From: Candidatus Micrarchaeota archaeon
GTDB taxonomy: Archaea > B1Sed10-29
Assembly (NCBI GenBank): GCA_964579265.1
Contig: CAZOFO010000005.1
Location: 2,390 to 42,114, forward strand
Length of the DNA: 39,725 bases
Direction of reading: 5' to 3'
Made by a program: the position numbers and the translations under genes. Every line of letters starts with the position of its first letter. The stretch's first letter is position 1. Positions 14,371-39,725 of this stretch are shown here, one piece after another. Under the pieces are notes generated by a model. That model saw only the letters and a list, made by a program, of their open reading frames with translations, was not told the DNA's origin and searched no databases.

Positions 14371-15042
14371 CTACAATCCATTAATCCCATTATGACAGAT
14401 ATCAAACCTAGCTGATTCTCCTTCTCCTCTAAAAAGATGTTTCTTAAGAACAGCTATTCTCTTCTCACCATCTCTCTTAAGCTGCACAATTATCTTAGAA
14501 GAATACTTCAATATATCTCCCCCAATAGGTCTAAATTCCTCTTCATCCGACTCAAAGTCAGAATAAACCTGATTTGTAACAAGTACTGGGATCTCGTTCT
14601 CCCTAGCAATACGAGAAAGCTCCTGAACCTGTCTACCAAGCTCCTGATTAGTTTCCCGAGCATTACCATTACCTAATTCAGGTCTATACTGCGAAGTCAA
14701 AGAATCAATAATAACCAAATCAACCTCATCTTCAATCTCCTTCAAACCATCAATAACTTTCTTCTGTTCTTCAAAACTCAAAACACGCTTGAAAAAAACC
14801 TCATCCAAGATAGAACTAGCTTCACCACCATTCAACTGCTCTAACCTTCTCTCAGAAAACCCTCCTTCAGTATCAATGTAAACAACATCCTTACCAGCAC
14901 TATGAGCACTTACCAGAGCCTGAAGACAAATATTGGTCTTCCCAGTACTAGAAGCACCGTAAAACTGATTAATCCTCTTTGGAAGAAGACCACCTCCTAA
15001 CAAAGAATCAATGGCTTCACACCCTGTTGGAACCACACTCAT
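14371..15042 (-). CDS. radB: RadB (archaeal RecA/RadA paralog)
   Basis: 223 aa. N-terminus VPTGCEAIDSLLGGG, Walker A GASSTGKT, Walker-B-like LVIIDS. Short RecA-core-only architecture typical of RadB. Confidence 0.8.
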   Translation of the reverse strand: MSVVPTGCEAIDSLLGGGLLPKRINQFYGASSTGKTNICLQALVSAHSAGKDVVYIDTEGGFSERRLEQLNGGEASSILDEVFFKRVLSFEEQKKVIDGLKEIEDEVDLVIIDSLTSQYRPELGNGNARETNQELGRQVQELSRIARENEIPVLVTNQVYSDFESDEEEFRPIGGDILKYSSKIIVQLKRDGEKRIAVLKKHLFRGEGESARFDICHNGINGL

Positions 15043-17388: not shown

Positions 17389-17964
17389 CTAGAAGAAACC
17401 TGCAGGATTAAATATAAATACAAAATAAACAAAAGCGAAGAATAAAGTAACCCAAGTGAACTTACTCCAACCTAGAACCTTGTAACCATCCAAAGGCGGG
17501 AAAGGAAGCATATTAAACATCCCTAAAAACATGTTTATATGAAAGCCCCAAAAACCAAGAATTCTCAGAGAAGGAACAGTGAAGAAAATCACGAGAAAAC
17601 CAAGACCAAGTAAGAAATTAACCATTGGACCTGATAAACTGATTAAACCGTTTTCCCTAATAGTCAAATACTTCTTATGAATATACACAGCCCCAGGAGC
17701 AGCAAAAACAAAAGGAGTTAATACAGCAAAAGCTAAAGCAAGAACTAAACCTGCTATCCAAGCACGATAAACTGCTGTACAACCAAATCTTTGAGCAACT
17801 AACTTATGACCAAACTCATGAAGCATAAAAGCAAGTCCAACAGTTAAGAAAACCGTTAATAAACCTACTTCAGTTCCTGTTTTAATCAAAATTATGTAGA
17901 AAGCTACCGTTATAGTTAAAATTGAAATAGCTAAATGAACTAACTCGGTCTTCTCAAATTGCAT
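17389..17964 (-). CDS. Small membrane HExxH metalloprotease (site-2 protease / M50-like)
   Basis: HEFGHKLVAQRFG embedded in a hydrophobic helix, four to five TM segments, 191 aa. Confidence 0.55.
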   Translation of the reverse strand: MQFEKTELVHLAISILTITVAFYIILIKTGTEVGLLTVFLTVGLAFMLHEFGHKLVAQRFGCTAVYRAWIAGLVLALAFAVLTPFVFAAPGAVYIHKKYLTIRENGLISLSGPMVNFLLGLGFLVIFFTVPSLRILGFWGFHINMFLGMFNMLPFPPLDGYKVLGWSKFTWVTLFFAFVYFVFIFNPAGFF

Positions 17965-18084: not shown

Positions 18085-18720
18085 ATGAAAAAAGGGTTTT
18101 TAGCTACTGCAATACTGCTAATCTCCATAACCATAGTACACCAAGCGGCAATCACCCAAAACATCATAAGACAAAAAACGCTGGAAACAAAGAATACAAT
18201 TAGATTACATCGAAAAACCCAGGAAACACGTTATCAATTAACTCAAGGATTCAAATCCTCAATTAAAGAATCATTAAAGAAAACACAAGGAGAAAAACCT
18301 ATAATAAGAGAGCAAAAAGCCTGTAAAGAAGTAAAAGAGTGGTTTAATGAAGTAAAAGAATCTAAAAAAGAAAAAAATATACAAATAGAGCTAAAAGCAG
18401 GTTATATAGATAAAAAAACCTATGAATACAATAAAGAGCTAGAATACATAGGAAAATCATTCAAAATAATACAATCAAAGCTTAAAAAGAACCCAAAAGA
18501 AGTACTAGAAGAAATAGACGCAGAAGCAACTCTTTGCACTAACTACCTATCCATAAAAGAAGAAAAACCAGAAGCAAAAGTGAAAGATAACAACTATCTT
18601 AGACGGGAAATCACAGGTGTAATAGATAAAGAACCAGTTTACCTGTTCAAACTAAAAAAAGGAAACTTGAAACAAAAAGTAGTGATCCCTGGAGGAACCA
18701 AAATCAATGTAGAGGCCTAA
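18085..18720 (+). CDS. Secreted or membrane-anchored protein; first gene of the plus-strand prepilin-like cluster
   Basis: N-terminus MKKG|FLATAILLISITIV (basic residues, Gly, then a hydrophobic helix), with a K/E-rich globular remainder. Confidence 0.45.
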   Translation: MKKGFLATAILLISITIVHQAAITQNIIRQKTLETKNTIRLHRKTQETRYQLTQGFKSSIKESLKKTQGEKPIIREQKACKEVKEWFNEVKESKKEKNIQIELKAGYIDKKTYEYNKELEYIGKSFKIIQSKLKKNPKEVLEEIDAEATLCTNYLSIKEEKPEAKVKDNNYLRREITGVIDKEPVYLFKLKKGNLKQKVVIPGGTKINVEA

Positions 18721-18740
18721 AAACCAAACCAAGATAAAAA

Positions 18741-19109
18741 ATGAAAAGAAAAAACCCAAGAGCACAAATCACTCTAGAATTCCTAATAGCTATAACTGCT
18801 TACATACTAATAACAATAGGAACACTCCAGATACATGGACAAACACAGACAAAACTAGAAGAAGAAAAGATAAGATCAGAAAACTATAGAGAAATATCAA
18901 AAACCTCTGAATCATGTACATATCAATACTTCCACGGTCCATCAATACAAAAAAACAAAAATAGAACACAACCTACGGAAACAAACCAAAATAAACTTAT
19001 AAAAAAGTCCAACAAATCAAAAATTGCTGTAGAAACATTCTCACCTGAAATCACGCTTACAGAAAATAAAATAAAATGCAAATCAATCAAACCATGGTAC
19101 CTGAAATAA
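18741..19109 (+). CDS. Class III signal peptide (archaeal type IV pilin-like) protein
   Basis: MKRKNPRA|QITLEFLIAITAYILITIG is a [KR]-[GA]-Q-I-x-x-E pattern followed by a hydrophobic helix, as in EpdE/PibD substrates. 122 aa. Confidence 0.55.
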   Translation: MKRKNPRAQITLEFLIAITAYILITIGTLQIHGQTQTKLEEEKIRSENYREISKTSESCTYQYFHGPSIQKNKNRTQPTETNQNKLIKKSNKSKIAVETFSPEITLTENKIKCKSIKPWYLK

Positions 19110-19621
19110 AACTAAACCAAAAAGCACAAATACCAAGCCTAGATACAGCTACATCAATCATAACAATCCTTTTCATAGTATCCCTAACAACAACTCATTC
19201 CTACAACATACTTAACAGATCAGAAAACAAAGAAGAAAGAATAAACCTACAGAAAAAACTATACTTTGCCACAGAGTCACTGATAACAACCCCTGGAGAA
19301 CCAAAAGACTGGCACAAAACTGAAAAAACAGAAAGAATCGGATTAGCCAAATACAAAGAAAACACAGTAAAAAATCATGAATTAAACCCAACCAAAATCC
19401 AAGAACTACAAGAAAAACCAATAGAAAAAATAAAAAAATCACTCGCACTAACAAAAAAAGAAATAGAACTAAAGATAACTAAAATGAATGGAAAAAAGAT
19501 ACTGAAAAAAACAGAAATAGAAAATAAAAGCATAAACACAGTTCAAATAAAAAGAATAGCTCTAATAGAAGATGAAAAACATATCATTACACTCAAAGCA
19601 AAAAATACAAATAAAAAATGA
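19076..19621 (+). CDS. Possible pilin-like protein (start uncertain; M at 19094 is an alternative)
   Basis: …NQKA|QIPSLDTATSIITILFIVSL is a KAQI motif plus hydrophobic segment. It overlaps the previous gene's 3' end. Confidence 0.4.
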   Translation: MQINQTMVPEIKLNQKAQIPSLDTATSIITILFIVSLTTTHSYNILNRSENKEERINLQKKLYFATESLITTPGEPKDWHKTEKTERIGLAKYKENTVKNHELNPTKIQELQEKPIEKIKKSLALTKKEIELKITKMNGKKILKKTEIENKSINTVQIKRIALIEDEKHIITLKAKNTNKK

Positions 19622-19628
19622 ATCAAAA

Positions 19629-19937
19629 ATGAACAAAAAAGCATTTACATTAACAACAGAAGCCATACTATGCCTGACAATACTTCTAATCTCACTGAAC
19701 TCTATTGAACAAGAAAAACATCCTGCTCTAACCGAAGAAATATCACAATTACAAGCGCAGGACATAGTTGAAACATGTATAGCTAAACAAGAACCCAAAA
19801 AACAATGTTTCCAGAAAATAGAAAAAATAAATCCCTCATTAGAGTACAGCAAAGAAGGGAAAATAACCGTAAAAAGAACAATAGAAGGTGAAAATAAAGA
19901 AATAAACTTCAAAAAGAATTTAAAAACCCCTAGATAA
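19629..19937 (+). CDS. Pilin-like protein (probable true start is the internal Met of track ORF 19572..19937)
   Basis: MNKKA|FTLTTEAILCLTILLISL has a short basic N-terminus, A/F junction, Glu at +6 and a hydrophobic helix. Starting at 19629 avoids overlap with the upstream gene that ends at 19621. Confidence 0.45.
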   Translation: MNKKAFTLTTEAILCLTILLISLNSIEQEKHPALTEEISQLQAQDIVETCIAKQEPKKQCFQKIEKINPSLEYSKEGKITVKRTIEGENKEINFKKNLKTPR

Positions 19938-20270
19938 CCTCACAAATAATTTATCCTCTTCAAAAGACAGATCACAGTTCTCATTAATCTCCAAATCAGT
20001 AGAAAAATCACCATAACTTATATTTACTTTTCCCCCCTTATCCTCCACTTTAATACCTGGATTCATATCAATAGAAACAGAACCACCCGTAGTAAGAACC
20101 TCATCACACGCAATTGAAACATCTCTAGCAATAGAATCAACCTGAGCACTTCTAACAGATTCCTCTGATAAACTTCTTACCCTCGATAAAATAGGCAAGA
20201 TCCCTAGTAACACGCTTAAACCAATCGAGAAAACAATTAAATACTCCAAAGAAATCTGACCATTCTCCAT
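19920..20270 (-). CDS. Class III signal peptide (pilin-like) protein (probable start at internal Met 19 of the track ORF)
   Basis: MENG|QISLEYLIVFSIGLSVLLGI with GAGGTTG upstream. Third gene of the minus-strand pilin operon. Confidence 0.5.
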   Translation of the reverse strand: MENGQISLEYLIVFSIGLSVLLGILPILSRVRSLSEESVRSAQVDSIARDVSIACDEVLTTGGSVSIDMNPGIKVEDKGGKVNISYGDFSTDLEINENCDLSFEEDKLFVRLSRGF

Positions 20271-20289
20271 AACTGAAACAACCTCAACC

Positions 20290-20493
20290 CTACTTCCACT
20301 TAGCAATCTCTCCTTGATAATCAAACAATCTTTCTACCTCCTTCATCAGAGCCTCCTCTGCTTCTCCTGAAAAAGAATCCAATCCACTTATCAAAACAAC
20401 TGATATCGCTAAAAGAGCAGCCATAACCACTATCAACTCAGCAGAAATCTGAGCCCTATTATCTCCCCATAGATCCATCATAATCACCTTCAA
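20290..20493 (-). CDS. Short archaeal type IV pilin-like protein (about 60-67 aa)
   Basis: …GDNRA|QISAELIVVMAALLAISVVL, closely resembling short EpdE-type pilins (K/R-G/A-Q-I-x-x-E-L). The ATGA start/stop overlap with the upstream gene implies operon coupling. Confidence 0.65.
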   Translation of the reverse strand: MKVIMMDLWGDNRAQISAELIVVMAALLAISVVLISGLDSFSGEAEEALMKEVERLFDYQGEIAKWK

Positions 20494-20672
20494 GACCCAG
20501 TTATATTTCCAATCTCATCCATTAAATCCTCAGAAGTTTCATTAAGCTCACTAACAGCCTCCTCCGAAGTAGAAGAGATATTTTGAATAAACAAAAGAGA
20601 AAAACCAATTACCGCTGCCATGACAACGAGCAATTCAGCAGAAATTTGAGCTTTATCATCCATATCTACCAT
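20490..20672 (-). CDS. Short archaeal type IV pilin-like protein (60 aa)
   Basis: MVDMDDKA|QISAELLVVMAAVIGFSLLF, with GGAGGTG 9 nt upstream of the ATG. Paralog of the next gene in the operon. Confidence 0.65.
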   Translation of the reverse strand: MVDMDDKAQISAELLVVMAAVIGFSLLFIQNISSTSEEAVSELNETSEDLMDEIGNITGS

Positions 20673-20829: not shown

Positions 20830-21561
20830 ATGTCTAATTCTACCGGAAAAAAAGACACTAAAAAAGAGAAAGAAAAAGAACTGCAAGATATAGTAATGGA
20901 TATGCTCCTCAAAGGAGAAAAAAAAGAAGATATCCTAGTTACACTGCAAGAAACAGGGTTAACCGAAGAAGAATCAAAAAATGTCTATGAAAAAGTAAAG
21001 AAAGACTACGAAGAATCACTAGGAACTGAAATGGAGAAAAAAACAGAAGAACTCTTCAGAGAAAAAGAAGAAGAGATCATGGAAAGGATGGACGATAAAA
21101 TAGAAAAACTCAAAAAAGACCTTAAAACAAAAAGAAACCTAAAATCTACAGAACAAAAAGAATACATAGATAAAAAAACAAACAAACTAGAAGAAAGAGT
21201 AGACGAACTTCAAAGTCAACTTTTCACATTTAGAGCAACAATGAAAAATAAAGTAGAAAAAATATCAGAAACAATAGGCGGATCAGGACTGGATAAAAAC
21301 ATCAAGAAATCTATAGCAGTGATAATGATAATCATAGCAATAACAATGATAGCATACCCTCTAATAAACTACAACACAACAATAACTCTTCTAGAAGAAG
21401 ATATATCAAGAGGAATGATTAATCTACTATTCCACATAGCACTTATAGCCGGAGCCCTCATCCTAGGAAAATACGGAAAAGATATATACATAGCTTCACA
21501 CAAACAAAAACTAGAGGAAATAGGGCACGACTGGGTTGAAAAAAACCAAAAAAGAAGATAA
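20830..21561 (+). CDS. K/E-rich coiled-coil protein with a C-terminal two-helix membrane anchor (tail-anchored)
   Basis: About 170 aa of heptad-like K/E sequence, then SIAVIMIIIAITMIAYPLI … LLFHIALIAGALILGKY. First gene of a tightly spaced three-gene operon. Confidence 0.5.
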   Translation: MSNSTGKKDTKKEKEKELQDIVMDMLLKGEKKEDILVTLQETGLTEEESKNVYEKVKKDYEESLGTEMEKKTEELFREKEEEIMERMDDKIEKLKKDLKTKRNLKSTEQKEYIDKKTNKLEERVDELQSQLFTFRATMKNKVEKISETIGGSGLDKNIKKSIAVIMIIIAITMIAYPLINYNTTITLLEEDISRGMINLLFHIALIAGALILGKYGKDIYIASHKQKLEEIGHDWVEKNQKRR

Positions 21562-21574
21562 ATAAAGGGATAAA

Positions 21575-22258
21575 ATGAAAACACTAGAAAAACTACAACA
21601 AGAAAAAAGAGAAAAGATAGAAAGAGCAGAGAAACTAAGAGAAAAAGCCCAAAAGAAAAAAGAAAAAAGAGATAAAGAAAATAAAAAAGTTTCTGAATAC
21701 AAAGAAAAAAGAAACAAGAAAAATGAAGAAAAAAAAGATAAAAAAGAAAAATTAGAAGAAATCCAAGAAGAAATAGAAGAACTTTCAAAAAATATAGACA
21801 CAAATAAATCCTTATCAAAATACGAAGATAGATATAACAAGATATACTGGAAGTATCAAACAGAACCAACTTCAAAAGAGAACGAACTAGTGGAAAAACT
21901 GGAAGAATTGGAAGAAAAAAAGGAAAAAGCAAAAAAACTAAATAAAAAGAAGAAAGAAGCAAGAAAAATAAGGGAACAGATAAGAGAACTAGAGACGGAA
22001 GCAAACATCTACCACAAAGTGGTTACAAAACACGCTGAAAAAAGCGAGAAAAATCACAGGGAAATGATAGAACTATACCAAAAACTAGATAAACTCGAAG
22101 AAGAAATCGATGAAGTCAAGGAAAAAATAAAGAAAAGAAGAAGAACCATGAAGAAAGAAAAAACAAGGGAAAAAGCCTTGAAGGAAGAAAAAGCCGAAGA
22201 AGCTGTAAAAGAATTTAAAGAAAATGGAAAAATAACTATCAATAATCTAACAACGTGA
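21575..22258 (+). CDS. Extremely charged (K/E/R) predicted coiled-coil protein, hypothetical
   Basis: 227 aa, almost entirely KEKR heptad-like sequence. Starts 13 nt after the previous gene. Confidence 0.45.
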   Translation: MKTLEKLQQEKREKIERAEKLREKAQKKKEKRDKENKKVSEYKEKRNKKNEEKKDKKEKLEEIQEEIEELSKNIDTNKSLSKYEDRYNKIYWKYQTEPTSKENELVEKLEELEEKKEKAKKLNKKKKEARKIREQIRELETEANIYHKVVTKHAEKSEKNHREMIELYQKLDKLEEEIDEVKEKIKKRRRTMKKEKTREKALKEEKAEEAVKEFKENGKITINNLTT

Positions 22259-22262
22259 TAAA

Positions 22263-22643
22263 ATGACTAGGAAATCAACTAAAGAGGAAATAGCTTACAA
22301 ATTAGTTAAGCTATATGTAGGAGAAATTTCAAGAGGCGGAGAAAAAAGACAGATGGGTCTAGACACAATAATAAATGCATATTTCTACACATTAACTAGA
22401 TTAGAGAGGAAAAAAGAAGAATTAGGGTTATTCGAAACTGCTGTAAAAAAAGAAGAAGAAGCAGCAGAGGAACTTGGAATACCAATTGGAGATGAGGAAA
22501 TGCCCTTTGAAAGAGAACTTAAAAAAGCGGCAGAAGAAGCGAAAAAAGAACTAGAAGAAAGAAAAAAAGCTAAAGAAGAAACAGAGGAGAAAGAAGAAAA
22601 AGAAGAGAAAAAACAGGGTAAAAAACCTCCGATAAGTTCTTAA
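22263..22643 (+). CDS. Small α-helical protein with a K/E-rich tail, hypothetical
   Basis: 126 aa. The conserved-looking N-terminal 60 aa is EIAYKLVKLYVGEISRGGEKRQMGLDTIINAYFYTLTRLERK. Starts 4 nt after the previous gene. Confidence 0.45.
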   Translation: MTRKSTKEEIAYKLVKLYVGEISRGGEKRQMGLDTIINAYFYTLTRLERKKEELGLFETAVKKEEEAAEELGIPIGDEEMPFERELKKAAEEAKKELEERKKAKEETEEKEEKEEKKQGKKPPISS

Positions 22644-33600: not shown

Positions 33601-33894
33601 ATGAGAAATATATCACAAGGAGCACTTGAATATATGATAATAATAGCAGCAGTTCTATCCATTGCAGCAATGGTCACAGTATTCCTAACCGGAGCATTAG
33701 AAGGAAGAAGAGAAGAAGCACTAGTAAGCGAATGTAGATCAGCAGCAGCACAGTGTAAACAAGATCAATTGATTTCTCCAGAGACAGAATGCCCACAGTG
33801 CGAAGTATGCGGAGAATTAGCAGAAATAGACGGATACGAAGATGCAGAAGAACACTGCAGAGCAGGAGAACCTGAAAGAATAGGAACAGGGTAA
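33601..33894 (+). CDS. Class-III-signal (pilin-like) Cys-rich protein, paralog A
   Basis: SQGA|LEYMIIIAAVLSIAAMVTVFL, then ECRSAAAQC…C-x2-C-x2-C…C (six Cys). Shares its 5' region with 37300 and 37717 at the nucleotide level. Confidence 0.55.
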   Translation: MRNISQGALEYMIIIAAVLSIAAMVTVFLTGALEGRREEALVSECRSAAAQCKQDQLISPETECPQCEVCGELAEIDGYEDAEEHCRAGEPERIGTG

Positions 33895-37299: not shown

Positions 37300-37635
37300 A
37301 TGAACCGTAAAAAAACAAAATCAGAACAAAAATCTCAAGGGGCAATGGAGTACATGATAATAATAGCAGCAGTACTGATAATAGCAGCGGTGACCACAAT
37401 GCTCATAACCAGAACCACAGGAAGACAAAGAGAGGAAGTACAGATAGAGGAGTGTAGATCAGCAGCAGCACAATGTTCTACAGAACACGCACGTTACGAA
37501 GACCCAGCATGTGAATTCTGCGTGAATGCATGCGAACCAGTGGAAGAAAACGACTTAATGGAAAATGCAGTAGACTGCTGCAAAGCAGGAATGGAAGAAA
37601 AGATATACATGGACTCAGAAGAGGATTGCTCATAG
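37300..37635 (+). CDS. Class-III-signal (pilin-like) Cys-rich protein, paralog B
   Basis: SQGA|MEYMIIIAAVLIIAAVTTML, then ECRSAAAQC…C-x2-C-x3-C…CC…C (eight Cys). Confidence 0.55.
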   Translation: MNRKKTKSEQKSQGAMEYMIIIAAVLIIAAVTTMLITRTTGRQREEVQIEECRSAAAQCSTEHARYEDPACEFCVNACEPVEENDLMENAVDCCKAGMEEKIYMDSEEDCS

Positions 37636-37716: not shown

Positions 37717-38793
37717 ATGGATGGAAAAATGATTTTTCATAAGAAATCAAGAAGACAACGTTCCCAAGGAGCAATGGAGTACCTAATAATAATAGCAGCA
37801 GTACTAATTGTAGCAGCAGTAACAACGATGCTGGTTACAGGTACGGTTGGAGAACAAAGAGAAGACGTATTAATAGAACAATGTAGATCAGCAGCAACAC
37901 AATGTGAATTACAAAGAAGAGGAGATCCTGACGCTGACTGCGATTTCTGCGAAGAACAATGCGTGGATCAAGAAGGAGAAGAAATATTCGAAGGAGCAAT
38001 AGACTGCTGTAAACTAGGAATGGACGAAGAAATATACATAGGGTCGGATGGCTGCGGAGACTTAATAGAGGTCACTGCAGATTTTTCACACGATCCGCTA
38101 AATCCCACAGCAGGATCAGAAGTAGAATTCACAGATCAATCAACAGTAAACCATCCTGATTACGATATAGTCGACTGGGAATGGGATTTTGGAGACGGAG
38201 GGACCTCAAGCCAACAAAACCCAACTCACACTTATGATTCAGAAGGAACATACACAGTAGAACTGCAAGTATGGGATGAGGAAGGAAACACTGATACAAC
38301 TCAAGAAACTTTGGAAGTATCTGAATACGTTTACCTAGAGACTGACTACGAAGGAGAAGGAGAAATAGATGTAGATCCACCAGATATCGAAGGAAGATAT
38401 GAGGCAGGAACGGAAATAACACTCACCGCCGAACCATACGAACTTGAAGATTACTACCTCTACGAATGGAAAGATGCAGAAGGAAGCACAACAGAATGCA
38501 TAGGAGAAGACGAAACATGCACCTTCACCATAGAAGAAAATTCAGAAATAACAGCAGTATTCATAGATGAATACGCCGTCAACTTCACCGAAGAAAAAAC
38601 ATACATAGAGGTAGATATAGAGGAAAAAGAAACAATATCCTTCTGGGCTAGAAATGAAGATGAAGAATGGACACATTACGCAGTATCAGGCGGAACCCAA
38701 TATGTAAACGGAGAACAACAGCAGTTTGACAATACTTACTACCTAGAAGAAGAAGGAAAACTCAAAATAGGGATATATCGTTTCGATGATTAA
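37717..38793 (+). CDS. Class-III-signal Cys-rich protein, paralog C, fused to a PKD domain and a divergent-InlB-B-repeat-like β module
   Basis: SQGA|MEYLIIIAAVLIVAAVTTML with the same eight-Cys spacing. PKD motif WDFGDGGTS…NPTHTY…GTYTVELQVWD at about 38065-38320. It is followed by a GEGEIDVDP…YEAGTEITLTAEP…Y.YEW…TCTFTIEENSEITAVF unit. Confidence 0.65.
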   Translation: MDGKMIFHKKSRRQRSQGAMEYLIIIAAVLIVAAVTTMLVTGTVGEQREDVLIEQCRSAATQCELQRRGDPDADCDFCEEQCVDQEGEEIFEGAIDCCKLGMDEEIYIGSDGCGDLIEVTADFSHDPLNPTAGSEVEFTDQSTVNHPDYDIVDWEWDFGDGGTSSQQNPTHTYDSEGTYTVELQVWDEEGNTDTTQETLEVSEYVYLETDYEGEGEIDVDPPDIEGRYEAGTEITLTAEPYELEDYYLYEWKDAEGSTTECIGEDETCTFTIEENSEITAVFIDEYAVNFTEEKTYIEVDIEEKETISFWARNEDEEWTHYAVSGGTQYVNGEQQQFDNTYYLEEEGKLKIGIYRFDD

Positions 38794-38821: not shown

Positions 38822-39725
38822 ATGGATAAAAAAATAGGAATAATACTGATCGGGATCATAGCGATAATAGGCACTTTCGTAGCAGTTCAACTCATAAGAG
38901 AAGAACCAGAACCAGAACCGGAACCTGAAATCCCTGAGATAGAAGCAAATGAATTAACGATAAATATAGAAGGACAGGGTGAAACAGACCCGATAGAAGG
39001 CACACACGCATACGAAGTAGGAGAGGAAGTTACAATCACAGCAGAGTCGGACGAAGGTTGGTACTTCAATAAATGGACAGGATACATAGAAGAAACAGAA
39101 GAAGAAATTACAGTTACGATGGATGAGGATAAAGAAGTGACAGCACACTTCGCAGATGAAGAGATAACATACTATGACTTAACGATCAATGTAGAGGGTG
39201 AAGGAGAAACAGATCCAGAGGAAGGCACCCATACATACGAGGAAGATGAAGAAGTCACAGTAACAACTACACCTGAAGAAGATTGGTATTTCAATGAGTG
39301 GATAGGCGACTGCACCGGAACAACCTGTACACTAATCATGGATGAAGATAAAGAGATAACAGCATACTTCCAAGAAGACGCACCTGATTTAGATCTAAGT
39401 ATAAATGTAGAAGGAGATGGAGAAGTAGAAATAGATCCGGACAAGGATGAATTCGAAGAAGGAGATCAAGTAACACTAACAGCAATACCATCAGAGTATT
39501 TAGGAGAAAAATGGCTATTCGAAGAATGGACAGGAGATTATACAGGCACGGAAGAAGAAATCACAATAACGATGGAAAAACATACTCAGATAACAGCTCA
39601 TTTCATAGAAGAAGATGAAGAAGAAGATGAAGAAGATGAAGAAGAAGACGATGATGAAGAACCTGAGATAGGATACACCATCACAACAAACATCGAAGGA
39701 GAAGGAGAAGTGGAAACGGATCCAG
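38822..39725 (+). CDS. Large acidic surface protein built from divergent-InlB-B-repeat-like modules; 3' partial (runs off the window)
   Basis: Not in the ORF track because no stop falls within the window. GGTGA lies 8 nt upstream. N-terminal anchor MDKKIGIILIGIIAIIGTFVAV, an (EP)4 linker, and at least four repeats of about 66-70 aa (LTINxEGxGETDP…GTH.YE…V.VT….W.F..W.G…T.TMDEDKE.TA.F). Confidence 0.6.
   Translation, partial: MDKKIGIILIGIIAIIGTFVAVQLIREEPEPEPEPEIPEIEANELTINIEGQGETDPIEGTHAYEVGEEVTITAESDEGWYFNKWTGYIEETEEEITVTMDEDKEVTAHFADEEITYYDLTINVEGEGETDPEEGTHTYEEDEEVTVTTTPEEDWYFNEWIGDCTGTTCTLIMDEDKEITAYFQEDAPDLDLSINVEGDGEVEIDPDKDEFEEGDQVTLTAIPSEYLGEKWLFEEWTGDYTGTEEEITITMEKHTQITAHFIEEDEEEDEEDEEEDDDEEPEIGYTITTNIEGEGEVETDP
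38954..39725 (+). repeat. Tandem protein-coding repeats (at about 38954-39151, 39179-39370 and 39395-39604, with a fourth starting at 39674), plus an acidic (E/D)n spacer at about 39605-39670
   Basis: Hand alignment of the translated repeats; the nucleotide sequences diverge while the protein pattern is conserved. Confidence 0.55.

Follow-up and report, generated by a model that had tools for sequence, protein, structure and literature searches.

Contact with hosts is a requirement for archaea of the DPANN group, and the structures regarded as leading candidates for establishing it are type IV pili. Among described systems, the one closest to the genes analysed here is the Epd pilus of Methanococcus maripaludis (clade 1 of Makarova et al. 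2016; system 1 in the nomenclature of type IV filaments, TFF). The genes in question, g1 to g7, form a cluster of seven prepilin-like genes in a 39,725-nucleotide stretch of contig CAZOFO010000005.1 (assembly GCA_964579265.1, Candidatus Micrarchaeota archaeon), which is referred to as the window throughout. The cluster had been noticed in an earlier note made from the sequence alone (the original prediction), which regarded it as an orphan pilin island. Our comparisons indicate, with a probability of roughly 0.8, that the cluster is a cassette which consists of pilin genes alone and belongs to an Epd-like (system 1/clade 1, Tad-related) type IV pilus of the DPANN Iainarchaeota/Micrarchaeota group.

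In the Epd system, substrates of the prepilin peptidase EppA carry glutamine at position +1 and glutamate at position +5 after the cleavage site; the pilins are 67–76 amino acids (aa) long, and the minor pilins are about twice as long (PMC3875500). The pilus genes of M. maripaludis are found in at least four separate loci (PMC3875500), the major pilin being encoded by a stand-alone gene. More generally, clade 1 combines an ATPase with two TadC-like proteins and no fewer than five minor pilins; its major pilins, ~70 aa in length and with paralogues, are encoded by genes that stand alone (PMC4858521). A pair of platform genes with a single T2SSF domain each is a hallmark shared by Epd and Tad systems (PMC6668835). 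Separation of the pilin loci from the motor genes is documented as the usual state in pili of this type (PMC3875500, PMC4858521). This class of system has been reported in the micrarchaeon Mia14, with key components said to be common to many Micrarchaeota (PMC5498576). A 2026 survey of archaeal TFF likewise found the system in DPANN archaea, with stand-alone pilins at separate loci (bioRxiv 10.64898/2026.04.22.720090).

The locus studied here, together with motor genes located upstream of the window on the same contig (described below), resembles the Epd system in several respects. An ATPase gene is accompanied by two single-T2SSF platform genes and by a gene for an A24 peptidase of about 334 aa (the Epd peptidase is a dedicated one). 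The leaders end in G or A; the +1 Q/+5 E signature is complete in g2, g5, g6, and g7, partial in g3 and g4, and absent from g1. Small paralogous pilins without a globular domain (54–63 aa here) occur alongside at least five longer minor pilins (g1–g5, 116–211 aa), and the pilin genes are spread over loci away from the motor. The two smallest proteins of the cluster, of 63 and 60 aa, do belong to the minimal Methanococcus (Epd) type to which they had been likened. The differences are that the host belongs to the DPANN group and not to the methanogens or Thermococci; that the peptidase gene and a pilin operon are joined to the ATPase/platform locus, whereas in M. maripaludis the ATPase and platform genes are apart from the epd/eppA operon; and that the proteins themselves have no detectable orthology beyond the N-terminal helix.

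A pilus of the same class is reported from the related DPANN lineage of 'Ca. Mancarchaeum acidiphilum' Mia14 (MIA14_0170-0177, Methanococci/Thermococci group). The description of Mia14 deals with machinery loci (PMC5498576), and a seven-gene cassette of four plus three genes beside Cdc48 and M50 peptidase genes is not described there. Similarity to bacterial Tad/Flp pili is seen in the very short major pilins with Q at +1 and in the split, TadB/TadC-like platform. The minor pilin sets of type II secretion systems (T2SS), type IV pili, and Com systems (GspH-K, FimU-PilVWX, ComGD-GG) provide an analogy, and only that: they also form operons of 4–5 genes in which one product lacks the acidic residue (g1 here, GspK there). 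In distinction from these bacterial systems, there is no secretin and no Flp motif, and the ATPase is of the archaeal type.

Class III signals of the cluster proteins

Seven tightly packed open reading frames (ORFs), four on the plus and three on the minus strand, occupy positions 18085–20672 of the window, as had been claimed (Table 1). Same-strand genes are separated by −50 to +20 nt, which implies two operons. The operons converge, and the stop ends of g4 and g5 overlap by 18 nt (19920–19937), again in agreement with the original prediction; in orthologous clusters, these 3' ends overlap by as much as 17 nt or are as far as 22 nt apart. Gene calls were identical on independent public assemblies of the same organism.

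All seven products contain the class III (prepilin-like) signal that had been attributed to them: a charged leader, G or A, then Q or F, and a hydrophobic helix of ~20 residues. The mean Kyte-Doolittle hydropathy over the 22 residues that follow the site is 1.28–2.26. The FlaFind 1.2 motif, [KRDE][GA][ALIFQMVED][ILMVTAS] as quoted in PMC4307647, combined with a hydrophobic 22-mer, was matched by six of the seven proteins. The exception is g5, which has N at position −2, where R or K is found in five of eight orthologues. Only five of 169 other six-frame ORFs of the window (at least 45 aa) passed the same filter, namely four shadow ORFs and one Band-7 membrane anchor. The local enrichment is thus far beyond chance. 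Comparison of orthologues revealed that the cleavage-site signature is invariant, while the leaders vary in both length and sequence.

Outside the signal, the proteins differ considerably. The two small ones, g6 and g7, are paralogues with 45% identity. Invariant cysteine pairs are present in g1 (C80 and C151) and g5 (C55 and C99), and g2 contains two conserved cysteines that are invariant across its orthologues; this is what would be expected of extracellular domains. A conserved motif, ESLITTPGxPxDW, is found in g3. The basic leader of g4 is long, at 24 aa (18–20 aa in orthologues). The g7 protein contains three N-X-S/T sequons, which are mostly kept in orthologues, and its gene is preceded by a GGAGGTG Shine-Dalgarno sequence. 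A strong GGAGGT sequence is also located 9–14 nt 5' of an in-frame TTG codon upstream of g5 (20285–20324, minus strand); initiation there would give a g5 protein of 134 aa, of which 22 aa form the leader. The predicted ATG start at 20270 is preferred because the leaders of orthologues are short.

Table 1. Coordinates of the cluster genes and of the motor-side genes. Positions are those of the window unless marked L022; a slash marks the predicted cleavage site; m54 to m145 are proteins of the machinery-linked pilin set, named by their length.
Feature	Position	Strand	Length (aa)	N-terminal sequence and key residues	Shared class and machinery-linked counterpart	Remarks
g1	18085–18720	+	211	MKKG/FLATAILL (MKKG/FLATAILLISITIV); F at +1, no acidic residue at +5 or +6	protein without acidic residue: m145	largest pilin-like protein; candidate minor pilin or tip subunit
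g2	18741–19109	+	122	NPRA/QITLEFLIA; Q at +1, E at +5	Q-x-T-L-[ED] protein: m142 (G/QVTLD)	minor pilin candidate
g3	19094–19621 (alternative start 19076, 181 aa)	+	175	NQKA/QIPSLDTA; Q at +1, D at +6	Q-I-x-[ST]-L-D protein: m144 (G/QIFTLD)	minor pilin candidate
g4	19572–19937	+	121	KKA/FTLTTEAILCL; F at +1, E at +6	F-x-x-[ST]-x-[ED] protein: m116 (G/FVFSMD)	minor pilin candidate
g5	19920–20270	−	116	MENG/QISLEYLIVFS; Q at +1, E at +5	medium Q-x-[ST]-L-E-Y protein: m138 (G/QLTLEY)	minor pilin candidate
g6	20290–20481	−	63	DNRA/QISAELIV (DNRA/QISAELIVVMAA); Q at +1, E at +5	small Q-x-S-x-E pilins (g7, g6): m54, m58 (S/QVS[LF]EY)	small pilin without globular domain; major pilin candidate
g7	20490–20672	−	60	DKA/QISAELLV (DDKA/QISAELLVVMAA); Q at +1, E at +5	as for g6	small pilin without globular domain; best major pilin candidate; first gene of minus-strand operon
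T2SSE ATPase	L022 653–2368		571			E = 1.7e-49; start 26.7 kb upstream of g1
T2SSF platform gene	L022 2403–3539		378			one PF00482 domain; E = 2e-20; contiguous with the next gene
T2SSF platform gene	L022 3541–4458		305			one PF00482 domain; E = 3e-20
Class III protein	L022 4575–4973		132	SQG/A[LM]EY[ML] type		between platform and peptidase genes
A24 prepilin peptidase	L022 5033–6037		334			Peptidase_A24, E = 1.7e-16, and Arc_PepC; end 21.3 kb upstream of g1
m145, 3' end (last 108 codons)	1–325 (whole gene L022 9136–9573)	+	145	MKKA/VVITGIAFLIGV	g1	pilin-like; last gene of machinery locus

Assembly machinery and a parallel pilin operon upstream of the window

The parent contig of the window, which was retrieved with the TctA protein encoded in the window, is available in ENA as ERZ27266004 k141_241874 (51,953 bp; 11,879 of 11,883 overlapping bases are identical), and this single contig of ~52 kb is the portion of the genome covered by the analysis. 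The contig locus read upstream of the window was designated L022; window position 1 corresponds to L022 position 9249, so that window positions equal L022 positions minus 9248. In the window itself, no significant match to T2SSE, T2SSF, or A24 families was obtained in Pfam scans, in the precomputed Pfam annotation of orthologues, or in phmmer comparisons of the contig's own proteins with six-frame segments. The statement that the window lacks an ATPase, a platform protein, and a peptidase is therefore literally correct. It is, as a caution for this way of reading a sequence, true merely by virtue of the window edge. The machinery lies 3–9 kb beyond that edge: genes for a T2SSE ATPase, two T2SSF platform proteins, and an A24 peptidase lie 21.3–26.7 kb upstream of g1 on the same contig. 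The impression of an orphan pilin island thus arose from where the window was cut. Candidates for the cognate peptidase, ATPase, and platform genes, which the original prediction had proposed to look for elsewhere in the genome, are present on the contig, and since an A24 peptidase is among them, the pilin reading of the seven genes stands.

The peptidase contains both catalytic aspartate motifs (D21 and GGD83) and matches the FlaK structure 3S0X. The best NCBIfam match of the contig ATPase is FlaI/ArlI-like. No FlaH/KaiC-like or FleN/MinD-like ATPase was seen in the ~10 kb of machinery locus that was read. A RadB-like gene of the window (14371–15042, 223-aa product of the RecA superfamily) was considered as a FlaH-like pilus ATPase and rejected, its match to Rad51 (E = 2e-33) being far better than that to KaiC (E = 6e-9).

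The peptidase gene is followed by a second pilin operon, which encodes proteins of 54, 58, 138, and 126 aa, a DUF2101 membrane protein, and proteins of 142, 144, 116, and 145 aa. The entire machinery locus (L022 653–9573) contains about nine pilin-like genes. As can be seen from Table 1, each class of protein in the window cassette has a counterpart in this machinery-linked set. The order g2-g3-g4 is mirrored by m142-m144-m116, and in searches with hidden Markov models (HMMs) built from orthologues, g3 and m144 as well as g4 and m116 were reciprocal best N-terminal matches. For g4, the best match outside the cluster was m116, with an E-value of 1e-7 in a small database and in the N-terminal region only. 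A reasonable inference suggested by these parallels is that the window cassette and the machinery-linked set are paralogous cassettes. Since the cassette has the same make-up as the motor-linked operon, the same motor most likely builds a second filament, or a variant of the filament, from the cassette subunits.

Conservation of the cluster and its neighbourhood

The convergent cluster of four plus three genes is kept in at least ten related contigs, in which the identity of the small pilin ranges from 72% down to ~38%. In close relatives (loci L011-L014 and L025-L027), the same cluster is found with ~50–60% protein identity and identical neighbours: genes for topoisomerase IA, NFACT, RadB, Cdc48, and an M50 peptidase upstream, and a trio encoding a 243-aa protein, a DUF7121 protein, and a 126-aa protein downstream. 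A GTDB-wide scan with the small-pilin alignment located the cluster in Candidatus Iainarchaeum and Micrarchaeota metagenome-assembled genomes (MAGs) from soda-lake sediments and a hot spring. These MAGs are the closest named relatives of the host, which is indeed a reduced-genome DPANN archaeon, as had been supposed. The T1Sed10, B1Sed10, and CSSed10 MAGs presumably derive from sediments of the Kulunda soda lakes. In three distant loci (L019, L020, and L021; small-pilin identity 46%, 41%, and 38%, respectively), the layout is preserved, with the small pilin gene(s) and a g5-like gene converging on g4-g1 beside Cdc48 and M50 genes; in L020, the entire cluster is inverted as a unit. Thus, the cluster belongs stably to a core neighbourhood of the genome and is not a mobile island.

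A 1005-aa DUF2341 protein is encoded 2.3 kb from the cluster in L020 (14243–17260, plus strand). DUF2341 is a PilY-like adhesin domain of clade 1 loci.

Word-indexed searches with g1, g3, and g5 returned 5, 3, and 2 proteins, respectively, all near-identical or close, and provided synteny but no remote homology; the five homologues of g1 were all that was found among 5.8 billion proteins. With a profile of g3, 145 representatives of its family were retrieved (E ≤ 1e-3). Most of them are full-length proteins (~160–175 aa), and they share the N-terminus K-G-Q-I-x-[ST]-x-D and the TPGxPxxW motif. Among ten representatives looked up, one cluster came from Hydrothermarchaeota. Seventeen of 78 full-length g3 relatives match DUF7287, an archaeal pilin-like Pfam family (best E = 7e-7), while g3 itself has no Pfam match, DUF7287 included; g3 is thus a remote relative of this family and not a scored member. 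A metagenome scan with a seven-sequence alignment of g5 identified five loci, and the closest relatives of g5 outside the lineage (25–32% identity) are encoded directly downstream of an A24 peptidase gene on methanogen-like contigs. Sequence searches of the PDB with g3, g5, and g6/g7 profiles yielded nothing meaningful.

Proposed function of the cassette

A plausible course of events would begin with insertion of the seven preproteins, whose signal motifs are observed, in the membrane. The A24 aspartic prepilin peptidase encoded 21 kb upstream would then cut the leaders after G or A. By homology, the T2SSE ATPase and the two-protein T2SSF platform encoded 23–27 kb upstream would pull the mature subunits from the membrane and polymerise them via their N-terminal helices. 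The filament shaft would be made of g7 and/or g6, the mature forms of which are predicted to have ~52 residues and to be essentially a single helix with Q at +1 and E at +5; in the case of g7, the N-glycosylation sequons and the strong ribosome-binding site also fit this role. The g1–g5 proteins, which have extracellular domains of 60–200 residues and, in four cases, conserved cysteine pairs, may be minor pilins of low abundance with a role in priming of assembly, in decoration of the tip, or in both. Purely by analogy, g1, which is the largest and alone lacks an acidic residue near +5, may act as a GspK-type cap.

A more far-reaching version of this proposal, which we consider doubtful, holds that the cassette is an anciently duplicated and vertically inherited alternative pilin set, fixed beside Cdc48 and M50 in Iainarchaeota and Micrarchaeota, that re-equips a single Epd-like motor for a functionally distinct second filament, with g1–g4 as the archaeal counterpart of the bacterial minor pilin priming/tip complex and g1 as a GspK-like cap. 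If true, host attachment and DNA or nutrient uptake, for example, could be divided between two filaments.

Several observations weigh against assignment of the cluster to an Epd-like pilus served by the upstream motor. The HMM check with PF04021 (Class_IIIsignal) that accompanied the original prediction gave a mixed outcome: g6 (20.6 bits, E = 4e-4), g7 (15.2 bits), g5 (13.6 bits), and g2 (12.3 bits) matched the model, which has just 27 positions, while g1, g3, and g4 did not, and none of the seven proteins reached the gathering threshold of 23.7 bits. The F at +1 in g1 and g4, and the lack of an acidic residue in g1, make EppA-type processing least certain for these two proteins. The peptidase aligns with positions 9–331 of the 334-position EppA model with a score of only 39 bits (cut-off 450) and, with its N-terminal half alone, with the FlaK model at 50 bits (cut-off 330). 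Since both scores are far under the equivalog cut-offs, any subtype assignment of the peptidase, the length of which is EppA-like, would be tentative; a crude hydropathy scan revealed about 5–6 clear transmembrane segments, compared with ~9 in the EppA type. The two pilin sets resemble each other only in the N-terminal 30–60 residues, a compositionally constrained region, which does not permit a claim of common descent for the globular parts. AlphaFold2 models of g3 (predicted local distance difference test score, pLDDT, of 50; three-sequence alignment) and g1 (pLDDT 43; five sequences) are of low confidence: after a long helix at the N-terminus, they contain only short helices and strands, which is too poor to demonstrate a pilin fold of the globular parts. 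Finally, a hint of a second ATPase, encoded beside the cluster in some lineages, comes from locus L021.

The last point bears on the possibility that the cassette is served not by the upstream motor but by a type IV filament machine of its own, encoded elsewhere in the genome. The filament would then have a separate function, for example in DNA uptake or secretion as a pseudopilus and not in adhesion. In L021 (14542–17021, minus strand), a T2SSE ATPase of 597 aa, which is different from the contig ATPase (35% identity), and a KaiC-like ATPase are encoded 2.6 kb from the cluster. Genes for a DUF2085 and a ParA/MinD-like protein are located nearby as well, and the KaiC-like and ParA/MinD-like genes flank the ATPase gene. 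No T2SSF gene was seen beside this ATPase, however. The occurrence of two distinct type IV pilus systems in Mia14 Micrarchaeota (PMC5498576) would agree with a dedicated machine, as would the complete pilin set that the machinery locus of the window contig already owns. So would the resemblance of g2 to bacterial ComGE (NF041013; 23.6 bits, E = 4e-5), yet this score is half of the family cut-off of 49 and indicates resemblance only. Two further observations speak against a machine of this kind: in the window contig and in all close relatives, only housekeeping genes are found within 10 kb on either side of the cluster, and the cassette shares its leader type (+1 Q, +5 E) with the small pilins of the machinery-linked set. 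On balance, we regard a dedicated machine as unlikely.

Less probable still is that the cluster encodes, in part or entirely, type II membrane proteins that stay unprocessed, or Sec/signal peptidase I substrates, with N-termini that imitate a class III signal but no role as filament subunits. The short FlaFind motif has limited specificity, as is evident from the Band-7 anchor and shadow ORFs that also pass it; PF04021 is sub-threshold or absent for all seven proteins; and g1 has neither the +1 Q nor the acidic residue. But the charged leader, the G or A, and the Q-x-[ST]-x-E motif precede the hydrophobic segment rather than follow it, and the signature is invariant in orthologues although their leaders vary. 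Mimicry would also have to account for seven such genes in two operons, for the parallel pilin set directly behind the ATPase, platform, and peptidase genes, and for the g5 relatives that directly follow an A24 peptidase gene in methanogen-like contigs. The Epd-like pilin cassette is the reading that we prefer.

The pilus type, its occurrence in DPANN archaea, and the scattering of its pilin genes are already known, and no concept is changed by the results. Their added value is modest: a conserved cassette of four plus three genes in a core neighbourhood of Iainarchaeota and Micrarchaeota, its parallel with the motor-linked set, and a list of subunits. For one DPANN lineage, this list comprises two shaft candidates, five accessory pilins, and the parallel motor-side set, all of which are possible targets for studies of DPANN cell–cell contact.

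Other features of the window

The genes that adjoin the cluster are themselves conserved. The M50 metallopeptidase gene (17389–17964, minus strand; 191 aa, HEFGH motif) is directly adjacent to the cluster not only in the window but also in L020 and L021. Participation of this peptidase in pilin processing was considered and not adopted, since its position is most simply explained by conserved Cdc48-M50 synteny and a proper A24 peptidase is present. On the other side, the products of the downstream trio (20830–22643, plus strand) are 243, 227, and 126 aa long; the first has two C-terminal transmembrane helices and a coiled coil, and the second is a coiled-coil protein of the DUF7121 family. The trio adjoins the cluster in close relatives, and its first two genes, possibly also the third, still adjoin the inverted cluster of L020.

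Three further class III proteins are encoded on the plus strand of the window, at 33601–33894, 37300–37635, and 37717–38793. Their N-termini are of the type SQG/A[LM]EY[ML]IIIAAVL, and their PF04021 scores are 23.3–27.2 bits; two are above the gathering threshold, and the 97-aa protein is just under it. The 358-aa member of this group, with which no contig was retrieved, contains PKD and InlB-B-repeat-like domains and looks like an adhesin fused to a pilin N-terminus. It is followed by a plus-strand ORF (38822–39725) that is open past the end of the window. Its product has an N-terminal membrane anchor (MDKKIGIILIGIIAIIGTFVAV) and then repeats of ~70-aa units (TI.[IV]EG.GE.DP.EGTH.YEE.EEVT.TA.PEE.W.F..W.G), and is probably a large surface or adhesion protein.

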